The translations under genes and the position numbers were made by a program. The notes under the pieces were generated by a model. That model was not told the origin of the DNA. It did not search any database and was given only the letters and a program-made list of their open reading frames with translations. From Enterobacteria phage FrMerlot, in sequence record PP430144.1: a stretch of 4,222 bases of DNA; one strand, 5' to 3'. Below are positions 57-4,216 of this stretch, in pieces (positions within the stretch are counted from its first letter, which is position 1; each line of letters opens with the position of its first letter).

Positions 57-1319
57 ATGCCTAAATTACCACGTGGTCTACGTTTCGGAGCCGATAATGA
101 AATTCTTAATGACTTTCAAGAGCTCTGGTTTCCAGATCTCTTTATCGAATCTTCCGACACGCATCCGTGGTACACACTGAAAGGTCGTGTGTTGAACGCC
201 CATCTTGACGATCGCCTACCTAATGTAGGTGGCCGCCAGGTTAGACGTACTCCGCATCGTGCTACCGTTCCGATTGCCTCTACAGGCCTTCGTCCGGTAA
301 CAACCGTTCAGTATGATCCTACAGCACTATCGTTCTTGTTGAACGCTCGTGTTGATTGGGATTTCGGTAATGGCGATAGCGCGAACCTGGTCATTAATGA
401 CTTTTTGTTTCGCACTTTTGCACCTAAGGACTTCGATTTCTCGAATTCCCTAGTTCCTCGTTATAATCGGGCCTTCTCCGCTTTTAATGCCAAATATGGT
501 ACTATGATCGGCGAAGGGCTCGAGACTATAAAATATCTCGGGCTGTTACTGCGCAGACTGCGTGAGGGTTACCGCGCTGTTAAGCGTGGCGATTTACGTG
601 CTCTTCGCAGGGTTATCCAGTCTTACCATAATGGTAAATGGAAACCGGCTACTGCTGGTAATCTCTGGCTTGAATTCCGCTATGGTCTTATGCCTCTCTT
701 CTATGACATCAAAGACGTCATGTTAGATTGGCAGAAACGCCACGACAGGATTCAACGCCTCCTTCGGTTTTCAGTTGGTCACGGTGAGGACTATGTTGTC
801 GAATTTGACAACCTATATCCCGCCATCGCCTACTTTAAACTTAAAGGTGAGATTACACTCGAACGCCGTCATCGTCATGGTATAACCTACGCTAACCGCG
901 AAGGATATGCTGTTTTCGATAACGGTTCCCTTCGGCCTGTGTCCGATTGGAAGGAACTTGCCACTGCATTCATCAATCCGCATGAAGTTGCGTGGGAGTT
1001 AACTCCCTACAGCTTCGTTGTTGATTGGTTTTTGAATGTCGGTGACATACTTGCTCAGCAAGGTCAACTATATCATAATATCGATATCGTAGACGGTTTT
1101 GACAGACGTGACATTCGTCTCAAATCTTTCACCATAAGTGGTGAACGAAATGGGCGACCTGTTAACGTTTCTGCTGACCTGTCTGCTGTCGATACATTTT
1201 ATAGTCGATTACATACGAGCAAGCTTCCGTTCGCTACACTTGATCTCGATACTACCTTCAGTTCGTATAAACACGTTCTTGATAGTATCTTTCTATTAAC
1301 CCAACGCATCAAGCGTTGA
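57..1319 (+). CDS. A2: Maturation protein A2 (virion attachment protein; in Q-beta also the lysis effector that inhibits MurA)
   Basis: 420-aa ORF with ATG start and TGA stop at 1317-1319, first gene after a 56-nt leader. The translation (MPKLPRGLRFGADNEILNDFQELWFPDLF...LLTQRIKR) is recognisably the Q-beta A2 protein with scattered substitutions, judged from memory rather than by alignment. Confidence 0.95.
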   Translation: MPKLPRGLRFGADNEILNDFQELWFPDLFIESSDTHPWYTLKGRVLNAHLDDRLPNVGGRQVRRTPHRATVPIASTGLRPVTTVQYDPTALSFLLNARVDWDFGNGDSANLVINDFLFRTFAPKDFDFSNSLVPRYNRAFSAFNAKYGTMIGEGLETIKYLGLLLRRLREGYRAVKRGDLRALRRVIQSYHNGKWKPATAGNLWLEFRYGLMPLFYDIKDVMLDWQKRHDRIQRLLRFSVGHGEDYVVEFDNLYPAIAYFKLKGEITLERRHRHGITYANREGYAVFDNGSLRPVSDWKELATAFINPHEVAWELTPYSFVVDWFLNVGDILAQQGQLYHNIDIVDGFDRRDIRLKSFTISGERNGRPVNVSADLSAVDTFYSRLHTSKLPFATLDLDTTFSSYKHVLDSIFLLTQRIKR

Positions 1320-1339: not shown

Positions 1340-1741
1340 ATGGCAAAATTAGAGACTGTTACTTTAAGTAACATCGGGAAAGATGGAAAACAAACTCTGG
1401 TCCTCAACCCGCGTGGGGTAAATCCCACTAACGGTGTTGCCGCGCTTTCACAAGCGGGTGCAGTTCCTGCGCTGGAGAAGCGTGTTACCGTTTCGGTATC
1501 TCAGCCTTCTCGTAATCGTAAGAACTACAAGGTCCAGGTTAAAATCCAGAACCCGACCGCTTGTACTGCAAACGGTTCTTGTGACCCATCCGTTACTCGC
1601 CAGGCGTATGCTGACGTGACCTTTTCGTTCACGCAGTATAGTACCGATGAGGAACGAGCTTTTGTTCGTACGGAGCTTATCGCTCTGCTCGCTAGTCCTC
1701 TGTTGATCGATGCTATCGATCAACTGAATCCAGCGTATTGA
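1340..1741 (+). CDS. cp: Major coat (capsid) protein
   Basis: ATG at 1340-1342 to TGA at 1739-1741, 133 codons. The translation MAKLETVTLSNIGKDGKQTLVLNPRGVNPTNGVA...IDAIDQLNPAY is a Q-beta-type coat protein. The ORF-track start at 1316 is a TTG that overlaps the A2 stop and is not used here. Confidence 0.95.
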   Translation: MAKLETVTLSNIGKDGKQTLVLNPRGVNPTNGVAALSQAGAVPALEKRVTVSVSQPSRNRKNYKVQVKIQNPTACTANGSCDPSVTRQAYADVTFSFTQYSTDEERAFVRTELIALLASPLLIDAIDQLNPAY

Positions 1742-2338
1742 ACACTGCTCATTGCCGGTGGTGGCTCAGGGTCTAAACCCGATGGTCCGGTTATTATTAC
1801 TCCGGATCCACCGATAGATCCGCCGCCAGGTACAGGTAAGTATGCCTGTCCCTTCGCAATTTGGTCCCTAGAGGAGGTTTACGAGTCTCCTACTAAGAAC
1901 CGACCGTGGCCTATCTATAATGCTGTTGAACTCCAGCCCCGCGAGTTTGATGTTGCCCTTAAAGATCTTTTGGGCAATACAAAATGGCGTGATTGGGATT
2001 CACGGCTTAGTTATACCACGTTCCGCGGTTGCCGTGGCAACGGTTATATTGACCTTGATGCGAGTTATCTTGCTACTGATCAGGCTATGCGTGATCAGAA
2101 GTACGACATTCGCGAAGGCAAGAAACCTGGTGCTTTCGGTAACATTGAGCGATTCATTTATCTTAAGTCGATAAATGCTTATTGCTCTCTTAGCGATATT
2201 GCGGCCTATCACGCCGATGGTGTGATAGTTGGCTTTTGGCGCGATCCATCTAGTGGTGGTGCCATACCGTTTGACTTCACTAAGTTTGATAAGACTAAAT
2301 GTCCCATTCAAGCCGTGATAGTCGTTCCTCGTGCTTAG
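1340..2338 (+). CDS. A1: A1 read-through protein (coat protein plus C-terminal extension; minor capsid protein)
   Basis: I translated 1742-1969 by hand and found no stop; the track ORF 1970-2338 is in the same frame (position mod 3 = 2). Total 332 aa if the UGA is read as a sense codon. The extension (TLLIAGGGSGSKPDGPVIITPDPPIDPPPGTGKY...PIQAVIVVPRA) matches the Q-beta read-through domain. Confidence 0.9.
1739..1741 (+). other. Leaky UGA stop codon of the coat gene (programmed read-through site)
   Basis: The frame stays open for 199 further sense codons after this UGA, ending at TAG-TAA at 2336-2341. In Q-beta this UGA is suppressed at low frequency by host tRNA-Trp to make A1. Confidence 0.85.
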
Positions 2339-2343
2339 TAACT

Positions 2344-2348
2344 AAGGA
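2344..2348 (+). promoter_or_regulatory. Shine-Dalgarno (AAGGA) for the replicase gene
   Basis: AAGGA lies 8 nt upstream of the ATG at 2357, in the 18-nt gap between the A1 stop and the replicase start. Confidence 0.55.
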
Positions 2349-2352
2349 TGAA

Positions 2353-2372
2353 ATGCATGTCTAAGACAGCAT
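2353..2372 (+). promoter_or_regulatory. Translational operator hairpin (coat-protein binding site) over the replicase initiation codon
   Basis: AUGCAUGUCUAAGACAGCAU folds as an 8-bp stem (2353-2356 and 2358-2361 paired with 2365-2372), a bulged A at 2357 and a 3-nt UAA loop at 2362-2364. The replicase AUG (2357-2359) sits inside the stem. This is the Q-beta-type operator architecture. Confidence 0.8.
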
Positions 2373-4126
2373 CTTCGCATAACTCTCTTAGCGCACAATT
2401 GCGCCGAGCCGCGAACACAAGAATTGAGGTCGAAGGTAACCTCGCACTTTCCATTGCCAACGACTTACTATTGGCTTATGGTCAATCGCCATTTAGCTCT
2501 GAGGCTGAGTGTATTTCATTCAGCCCGAGATTCGACGGGACCCCGGATGACTTTAGGATAAGTTATCTTAAAGCCGAGATCATGTCGAAGTATGACGATT
2601 TCAGCCTAGGTATTAATACCGAAGCTGCTGCCTGGGAAAAGTTCCTAGCAGCAGAGGCTGAATGTGCTTTAACGAACGCTCGTCTCTATAGGCCTGACTA
2701 CAGTGAGGATTTCAATTTCTCACTGGGCGAGTCATGTATTCACATGGCCCGCAGAAAAATAGTCAAGTTAATAGGAGACGCTCCGTCCGTTGAGGGTATG
2801 TTGCGTCACTGCCGTTTCTCTGGTGGTGCCACAACAACGAATAACCGTTCGCACGGTCATCCGTCCTTCAAGTTTGCGCTTCCACAAGCGTGTACGCCTC
2901 GGGCTTTGAAGTATGTTTTAGCTCTTAGAGCTTCTACACACTTCGATATCAGAATTTCTGATATTAGCCCTTTTAATAAAGCAGTTACTGTACCTAAGAA
3001 CAGTAAGACCGATCGCTGTATTGCTATCGAACCTGGTTGGAATATGTTTTTTCAACTAGGCATCGGTGGTATCTTACGTGATCGGTTGCGGTGCTGGGGT
3101 GTCGATCTGAATGATCAGACGATAAATCAGCGTCGCGCTCACGAAGGCTCCGTTACTAATAACTTAGCAACGGTTGATCTCTCAGCGGCAAGCGATTCTA
3201 TATCTCTTGCTCTCTGTGAGCTCTTATTGCCCCCAGGCTGGTTTGAGGTTCTTATGGATCTCAGATCACCTAAAGGGCGGTTGCCTGACGGTAGTGTTGT
3301 TACCTATGAGAAAATATCCTCTATGGGTAACGGATACACATTCGAGCTTGAGTCGCTTATCTTTGCTTCTCTTGCTCGTTCCGTTTGTGAGATACTGAAC
3401 TTAGACTCGTCTGAGGTCACTGTTTACGGAGACGATATTATTTTACCGTCCTGTGCAGTACCTGCCCTTCAGGAAGTTTTTAAGTATGTTGGTTTTACGA
3501 CCAATACTAAAAAGACTTTTTTTGAGGGGCCGTTCAGAGAGTCGTGCGGTAAGCACTACTATTCTGGCGTAGATGTTACTCCCTTTTACATACGTCACCG
3601 TATAGTGACTCCTGCCGATTTAATACTGGTTTTGAATAACCTATATCGGTGGGCCACGATTGATGGCGTATGGGATCCTAGGGCCCATTCCGTGTACCTC
3701 AAGTATCGTAAGTTGTTGCCTAAACAGCTGCAACGTAATACTATACCTGATGGTTACGGTGATGGAGCCCTCGTCGGATCGGTCCTGATCAATCCTTTCG
3801 CGAAAAACCGCGGGTGGATCCGGTACGTACCGGTGATCATAGACCATACAAGGGACCGAGAGCGTGTTGAATCGGGGTCGTATCTTTACGACCTCTTTTC
3901 GCGTTGCTTTTCGGAAAGTAACGATGGGTTGCCTCTAAGGGGTCCGTCGAGTTGCGATTCTGTAGATCTATTTGCTATCGATCAACTTATCTGCAGGAGT
4001 AATCCTACAAAGATAAGCAGATCTACTGGTAAATTCGATATACAGTATATCGCGTGCAGTAGCCGTGTTCTGGCACCCTACGGGGTCTTCCAGGGCACGA
4101 AGGTTACATCTCTACACGAGGTGTAA
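2357..4126 (+). CDS. rep: RNA-dependent RNA polymerase (replicase beta subunit)
   Basis: ATG at 2357 (MSKTASSHNSL...) to TAA at 4124-4126, 589 aa. The catalytic YGDD motif is encoded at 3425-3436 (tac gga gac gat) in frame. The translation is recognisably Q-beta replicase. An in-frame ATG three codons upstream (2348) overlaps the SD and is less likely to be the start. Confidence 0.93.
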   Translation: MSKTASSHNSLSAQLRRAANTRIEVEGNLALSIANDLLLAYGQSPFSSEAECISFSPRFDGTPDDFRISYLKAEIMSKYDDFSLGINTEAAAWEKFLAAEAECALTNARLYRPDYSEDFNFSLGESCIHMARRKIVKLIGDAPSVEGMLRHCRFSGGATTTNNRSHGHPSFKFALPQACTPRALKYVLALRASTHFDIRISDISPFNKAVTVPKNSKTDRCIAIEPGWNMFFQLGIGGILRDRLRCWGVDLNDQTINQRRAHEGSVTNNLATVDLSAASDSISLALCELLLPPGWFEVLMDLRSPKGRLPDGSVVTYEKISSMGNGYTFELESLIFASLARSVCEILNLDSSEVTVYGDDIILPSCAVPALQEVFKYVGFTTNTKKTFFEGPFRESCGKHYYSGVDVTPFYIRHRIVTPADLILVLNNLYRWATIDGVWDPRAHSVYLKYRKLLPKQLQRNTIPDGYGDGALVGSVLINPFAKNRGWIRYVPVIIDHTRDRERVESGSYLYDLFSRCFSESNDGLPLRGPSSCDSVDLFAIDQLICRSNPTKISRSTGKFDIQYIACSSRVLAPYGVFQGTKVTSLHEV

Positions 4127-4133
4127 CCTGGGA

Positions 4134-4152
4134 GGGCGCCAATATGGCGCCT
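4134..4152 (+). other. 3'-UTR hairpin 1 (GGGCGCC / GGCGCCU stem, AAUAU loop)
   Basis: Direct reading: 4134-4140 pairs with 4146-4152, six G-C pairs plus a closing G-U, around a 5-nt loop. Confidence 0.55.
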
Positions 4153-4176
4153 AATTGTGAATAAATTATCACAATT
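4153..4176 (+). other. 3'-UTR hairpin 2 (AAUUGUGA / UCACAAUU stem, 8-nt A/U loop)
   Basis: Direct reading: a perfect 8-bp stem, 4153-4160 with 4169-4176, around loop AUAAAUUA (4161-4168). Confidence 0.55.
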
Positions 4177-4188
4177 ACTCTTATGAGT

Positions 4189-4216
4189 GAGAGAGGGATC
4201 TGCTTTGCCCTCTCTC
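4189..4216 (+). other. 3'-terminal hairpin (GAGAGAGGG / CCCUCUCUC stem, 10-nt loop AUCUGCUUUG)
   Basis: Direct reading: a perfect 9-bp stem, 4189-4197 with 4208-4216, leaving the last six nt (CUCCCA) single-stranded. Confidence 0.6.

Follow-up and report, generated by a model that had tools for sequence, protein, structure and literature searches.

A hairpin identical to the Qβ coat-protein operator contains the replicase start codon in the Qβ-like phage isolate FrMerlot

The element described here is already known: it is the replicase operator of phage Qβ, now found in a new Qβ-like isolate. The operator of MS2 has a 4-nt loop, a 7-bp stem and a bulged purine at −10, with the AUG at the 3′ foot of the hairpin and not in the bulge, and wild-type MS2 coat protein discriminates against the Qβ hairpin. 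Common to the MS2/R17-type operator (Emesvirus) and the Qβ type are a hairpin over the replicase start, a coat dimer as the ligand, adenine pockets and a stacking tyrosine, as well as a double role as repressor site and capsid contact (PMC3561173, PMC10610835), whereas loop size and stem length are unlike (PMC12724129, PMC11724954). In the model established for Qβ, coat protein represses replicase translation late in infection (PMC2978339, PMC10610835), and the replicase initiation site becomes accessible when the coat gene is translated (PMC2978339). The Qβ operator is defined, in PMC12724129 (citing Lim et al. 1996), by a 3-nt loop, an 8-bp stem and an adenine as the last loop base, which sits in the adenine-binding pocket of the coat protein; efficient binding requires the 3-nt loop and a 4-bp upper stem (PMC11724954).

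The pocket itself is formed by Asn30, Thr49, Ser51 and Gln65, as given in PMC7354602 (citing Rumnieks & Tars 2014; PDB 4L8H). According to PMC11724954 and PMC12724129, A+8 enters this pocket in PDB 4L8H, and Tyr89 from one of the two coat monomers forms a stack with the bulged A; the same role of A+8 appears in PMC7354602. In the model of the Qβ virion, the operator is stem-loop 34, which contacts a C/C coat dimer and is one of 33 operator-like stem-loops (PMC8880383). Because it is one of 33 such stem-loops, we regard the operator as a capsid contact rather than as a unique packaging signal.

How does the locus in FrMerlot compare? The stretch of DNA that we analyzed (the window, 4,222 nt) comprises nearly the entire genome of a Qβ-like single-stranded RNA phage (Qubevirus durum), and its set of open reading frames is that of Qβ (Table 1). 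In a megablast search of a phage collection, FrHibiscus and FrBurgundy match the window at 97.0% identity over their full length, many records of Escherichia phage Qβ/Qubevirus durum match at 91.5–95.8%, and M11 and MX1 match at about 75%; laboratory Qβ is ~94% identical. No record identical to the window was present in the collection searched, the best match being 97%, and FrMerlot is therefore a distinct isolate. Comparative statements below refer to two sets: 11 Qβ-like genomes including the window, and 17 Qubevirus genomes, of which those beyond the Qβ-like clade are 58–71% identical to the window.

Table 1. Positions of the operator hairpin and associated features in the window
Feature	Position	Strand	Remarks
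A2 maturation protein	57-1319		
Coat protein gene	1340-1741	+	Ends at leaky UGA; product is the trans-acting repressor binding the operator as a dimer
Coat-gene segments in predicted long-range pairing with 2324-2350	1587-1600 and 1647-1655	+	Full-length minimum-energy structure
Read-through protein A1	ends at 2336-2341		Tandem stops UAG UAA
Upstream hairpin, UCGU-G-CUUAG-UAA-CUAAG-G-AUGA	2329-2351	+	Pair probabilities 0.9-1.0 (121-1401 nt contexts)
Shine-Dalgarno region, AAGGAUG	2344-2350	+	Read from the sequence; 7-13 nt upstream of the AUG, outside the operator hairpin
Replicase translational operator hairpin, AUGC-A-UGUC-UAA-GACA-GCAU	2353-2372	+	Lower stem 2353-2356/2369-2372, upper stem 2358-2361/2365-2368
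Bulged A (A+1 of the replicase AUG)	2357	+	Predicted unpaired, 0.99-1.0 (contexts of at least 200 nt)
Triloop UAA (+6 to +8), A2364 = A+8	2362-2364	+	Minimum-energy and centroid folds
Replicase (β subunit) gene	2357-4126	+	Start AUG 2357-2359; aligned starts of relatives and PDB 3MMP

Folded alone, the 20-mer AUGCAUGUCUAAGACAGCAU adopts ((((.((((...)))))))) as both its minimum-energy and its centroid structure, at −5.7 kcal/mol: four base pairs, the bulged A2357, four further pairs and the loop U2362-A2363-A2364, with eight pairs in total. All eight are retained in the minimum-energy structure of contexts of 41, 71, 121, 201, 401, 801 and 1401 nt and of the full-length 4222-nt sequence, and their probabilities reach 0.8–1.0 in contexts of at least 200 nt. 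An earlier note on this DNA had claimed an 8-bp stem, a single bulged A and a 3-nt loop at this position, of the Q-beta rather than the MS2 type, and had named RNA folding as a check. Folding returns precisely that structure from 20 nt to the full genome, the local hairpin being the minimum-energy solution in every context, and the loop of 3 nt and stem of 8 bp are those published for the Qβ operator (PMC12724129, PMC11724954); MS2-type dimensions do not describe a hairpin with this loop and stem and a bulge at +1. The same note had placed the AUG inside the stem, which is correct for U2358 and G2359, paired at the first two positions of the upper stem, and incorrect for A2357, which is bulged.

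The stability of the hairpin is modest, with a z-score of −2.4 for the 20-mer and 7 of 200 dinucleotide shuffles folding at least equally well. When only Watson-Crick pairs are allowed, the geometry (4 bp, a 1-nt 5′ bulge, 4 bp, a 3-nt loop) occurs at a single site in the window, 2353, and on average 0.033 times per dinucleotide-shuffled genome (300 shuffles). With G-U pairs permitted, five sites in the window compare with 2.1 expected, and geometry by itself is therefore no more than moderately rare. We accordingly give most weight to the position on the replicase AUG and to the comparative data, rather than to geometry. A 3-bp extension of the stem (2350–2352/2374–2376, with C2373 bulged) appeared in the 41- and 71-nt folds and was rejected: it is gone in longer contexts, and BZ1 carries a U-to-C change in its 3′ arm.

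The position on the start codon is well defined by the relatives. In all 16 that are annotated, the replicase start aligns to AUG 2357, and residue 1 of the Qβ replicase β-subunit (PDB 3MMP, chain G) aligns to the Met of this codon. For annotation, the hairpin fixes the true replicase start as AUG 2357. A mechanical open reading frame call had set the start at AUG 2348 and was discarded, since the relatives and the 3MMP chain begin at 2357; that AUG, in frame with the gene and located within the Shine-Dalgarno sequence, would extend the protein by Met-Lys-Cys. A third AUG, at 2353, is out of frame and coincides with the first three operator bases. At the position of the Shine-Dalgarno sequence, a purine-rich AAGGAG/AAGGAU motif is conserved in the relatives.

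Base for base, the window hairpin matches laboratory Qβ (AB971354) and nine other Qβ-like genomes at 20 of 20 positions, and it equals the operator sequence printed in PMC12724129. The element is without any difference from the Qβ operator as represented by the RNA of PDB 4L8H and by stem-loop 34 of 7LHD; its placement on the replicase AUG, with A+1 bulged and A+8 last in the loop, and the surrounding genome organization are also the same. What differs is the host genome, which is that of a distinct isolate, and three residues of the coat protein (G9S, S34A and A113I). Taken with the comparative data below, we hold with high confidence that the hairpin at 2353–2372 serves a Qβ-like phage as its coat-protein translational operator.

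What does this identity say about selection? The earlier note had described the sequence as apparently identical to the Q-beta operator, which the comparison with AB971354, the nine other genomes and PMC12724129 bears out, and had argued from this identity to strong constraint. That argument is weak when taken alone, because the 11 Qβ-like genomes share 92–97% genome identity, 82% of the columns in their alignment are invariant, and 6.6% of all 20-nt windows show no variation at all. The conclusion itself stands on other grounds. The longest invariant run in the 11-genome alignment, 59 nt at 2315–2373, contains the hairpin and extends from the end of A1 across the intercistronic region and the Shine-Dalgarno sequence to the operator. 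Across the 17 Qubevirus genomes, 12 of 14 columns of the core at 2355–2368 are invariant, which places it in the top 1.3% of 14-mers, and the genus-wide fixed core reads GCAUG.C.AAGACA. The bulged A2357 is present in 17 of 17 genomes, as is a loop of 3 nt in which the two A's are invariant and the first base, the freely varying third position, is U or A. The third ground is covariation in the lower stem: the comparison of operators across relatives that the note had suggested finds no variation in the 20-mer among the 11 Qβ-like genomes and, at the level of the genus, covariation at the two bottom pairs.

We counted covariation in a structural alignment of eight distinct operator sequences. 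The first MAFFT alignment had set two extra bases of M11 and MX1 at the 3′ end, and the structural register was obtained by re-aligning sequences cut at the stem ends. In this register, pair 2353/2372 is A-U, U-A or C-G among the relatives and pair 2354/2371 is U-A or A-U; all changes at these two bottom pairs are double-sided, and 98.4% of cells are paired. None of 500 shuffles matches the observed covariation score or the percentage paired, sliding the 3′ partner by 1–3 columns lowers pairing to 16–44%, and RNAalifold returns the same structure as the window hairpin. The remaining six pairs are invariant, except for a C·A mismatch in SP that is present in three of three SP records and is therefore not a sequencing error. 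These six pairs say nothing for or against pairing, and the need to encode Met-Ser-Lys-Thr, together with the demands of the ribosome-binding site, could explain much of their constancy.

One may ask, then, whether overlapping coding and ribosome-binding-site constraints alone account for the conservation, the hairpin being incidental. The upper stem is indeed built from AUG UCU AAG ACA, the first four replicase codons, which encode Met-Ser-Lys-Thr in most relatives, and invariant 20-nt windows are, as noted, not rare among Qβ-like genomes. An incidental hairpin would, however, be hard to reconcile with double-sided changes at both variable pairs without a single-sided break, with the absence of any variation across the genus at G2365 (AAG) and A2368 (ACA), synonymous third positions in the stem for which alternatives exist, or with a Watson-Crick geometry expected about 0.03 times per shuffled genome. 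It also has to contend with M11 and MX1, which encode Thr-Ser-Gln where the window has Thr-Ala-Ser and yet rebuild a lower stem of 4 bp (CUGC/GCAG), its 3′ strand lying 2 nt further downstream. Because the lower stem persists despite these amino-acid changes, the comparison argues that the stem rather than the peptide is the selected feature. An incidental hairpin is thus disfavored by the covariation, and we give that explanation almost no credence.

A scan of IMG/VR with the 16-nt core GCAUGUCWAAGACAGC provides a natural control for the operator interpretation. The core occurs at 29 loci, three of them in Qubevirus contigs (two partial Qβ-like and one FI) and 26 in unrelated contigs. Complementary flanks accompany the core in 3 of 3 Qubevirus contigs versus 1 of 26 unrelated matches; the latter are chance matches, and the scan with this core yielded no new operator variants.

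The operators of M11, MX1, SP, NL95 and FI resemble that of the window in having a 3-nt loop ending in AA, a 4-bp lower stem, an unpaired A of the AUG and an upper stem of 4 bp made from the start codon and the codons that follow. The bottom two pairs are UA/AU, AA/UU, UU/AA or CU/AG in other Qubevirus operators, in contrast to AU/AU in the window, and the first loop base, U in the window, is A in MX1, SP, NL95, BR1 and BR8. The SP operator (2438–2457) has its C·A mismatch at the third upper-stem pair, where a Pro codon CCA replaces Ser UCN. In M11 (2348–2369) and MX1 (2347–2368), the shifted 3′ strand of the lower stem results in either a 1x2 internal loop or an A-U pair with a bulged C. The survey thereby offers a compact view of the operator positions that vary in the genus, namely the first loop base and the two bottom pairs.

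The likely protein partner is also nearly unchanged. The window's coat protein is identical to that of Qβ at 129 of 132 residues, the exceptions being the three substitutions given above. Taking as contact residues those named for the Qβ coat–operator complex in papers that cite its structure, we find N30, T49, S51, Q65 and Y89 all kept, and the basic residues R59, K60, K63 and K67 near the contact site are kept as well. A crystal structure of Qβ coat protein bound to an RNA identical to the window 20-mer exists (PDB 4L8H, cited in PMC11724954 and PMC7354602). Because the RNA is identical and the protein nearly identical to their Qβ counterparts, we infer that the same mechanism operates in the isolate; by this analogy, the coat protein of FrMerlot would bind the 20-mer. 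A point against it is that S34A alters a residue sharing its β-strand with Val32, which faces the RNA; M11, MX1 and FrHibiscus, however, carry Ala34 as well.

In conjunction with the published work on Qβ, we propose the following model for FrMerlot. The RNA would fold into the 8-bp stem, with a bulge formed by the first base of the replicase AUG, and the UAA triloop. As coat protein accumulates, a dimer would bind the hairpin across its β-sheet surface, with A2364 (A+8) inserted into the adenine pocket of Asn30, Thr49, Ser51 and Gln65 and the bulged A2357 stacked on Tyr89. The bound dimer would hold the start codon in the helix and thereby block 30S initiation, so that replicase synthesis would be switched off late in infection. 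Within the virion, the contact between hairpin and dimer would remain, one among about 33 operator-like contacts with the capsid. Both the translational repression and the capsid contact are assigned to this isolate by analogy. Given the modest stability (−5.7 kcal/mol, z −2.4), the RNA alone would probably be insufficient to block initiation, which agrees with, and does not prove, a protein-dependent switch. We found no evidence contradicting the operator explanation.

The operator does not stand alone at this junction. Immediately upstream lies a strongly predicted hairpin, 2329–2351, which includes the stop codons of A1 and whose 3′ arm carries the Shine-Dalgarno sequence. Its triloop, UAA in the window and CAA in most members of the SP/FI group, ends in AA like that of the operator; RNAalifold includes the hairpin in its consensus, and compensatory changes occur in it across Qubevirus. 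Its apex, 2334–2346, corresponds to operator-like stem-loop 33 (Qβ 2329–2341; Chang et al. 2022 Table S1, PMC8880383). In the full-length minimum-energy structure, this local hairpin is replaced by pairing of 2324–2350 with two segments of the coat gene, 22 bp in all. These pairs are kept at 22 of 22 in the Qβ-like genomes and at 19–20 of 22 in M11 and MX1, with one double-sided change; in SP, FI and NL95, checked in the register of the alignment, 8–12 of the 22 hold. The first of the two coat-gene segments falls inside 1566–1605, which likewise ranks among the longest invariant runs of the 11-genome alignment. Both alternatives retain the operator hairpin.

The predicted long-range pairing would constitute an alternative partner for the Shine-Dalgarno region, and it may couple replicase translation to that of the coat gene, which fits the published model of opening. 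Does the operator hairpin then act mainly in cis and without protein, throttling initiation together with the Shine-Dalgarno hairpin or the coat-gene pairing, with coat binding adding little? The Shine-Dalgarno sequence is predicted to be sequestered outside the operator, either in the hairpin at 2329–2351 (probabilities 0.9–1.0) or in the helix with 1587–1655, and because the replicase site opens when the coat gene is translated (PMC2978339), there is a layer of control that does not depend on protein. Such a layer, however, is complementary to control by protein and does not exclude it. The operator hairpin is itself weak, at −5.7 kcal/mol; pure occlusion would not constrain the sequence of the loop, in which the A's and the 3-nt length are invariant in 17 of 17 genomes; and the identical RNA has been crystallized with Qβ coat protein (4L8H; PMC11724954 and PMC7354602). 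We therefore consider a role chiefly in cis improbable, with a slim chance of being correct, and favor the coat-protein operator.

We also entertain, as a rather unlikely speculation, an extension of the operator model in which the hairpins at 2329–2351 and 2353–2372 would together offer two coat dimers a tandem site, clamp the Shine-Dalgarno sequence and the AUG, and compete with the 1587–1655 pairing. Both hairpins are modeled as operator-like capsid contacts in the Qβ virion, as stem-loops 33 and 34 (PMC8880383). If true, the junction would behave as a switch with three states: closed when the long-range pairing forms, open while the coat gene is being translated, and locked once coat protein binds.

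With regard to mechanism, the locus contributes nothing new, as work on Qβ has already described the operator, how coat protein binds it and where it sits in the virion. In practical terms, the isolate should be compatible with tools based on the Qβ hairpin, such as packaging tags for virus-like particles and coat-protein tethering.

Scanning the whole window against Rfam at E values up to 1 gave no match to an operator family, and Rfam has none for the Qβ operator. Its single hit was a weak one to the Pseudomonas sRNA P24 at 3947–4189, in the 3′ terminal domain, at 18.9 bits versus a gathering score of 100 (E 0.047); we judged this a chance match to a structured region. At its 5′ end, the window begins with UCCCCCCUUAGGGGG, in comparison to GGGGGACCCCCCUUAGGGGG in complete Qβ genomes, and about five terminal bases (GGGGA) are absent. 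The first base of the window differs from Qβ (U for A), and the start of FrBurgundy (PP430142) is identical to that of the window. The 3′ end of the window is complete (…CUCUCCUCCCA).
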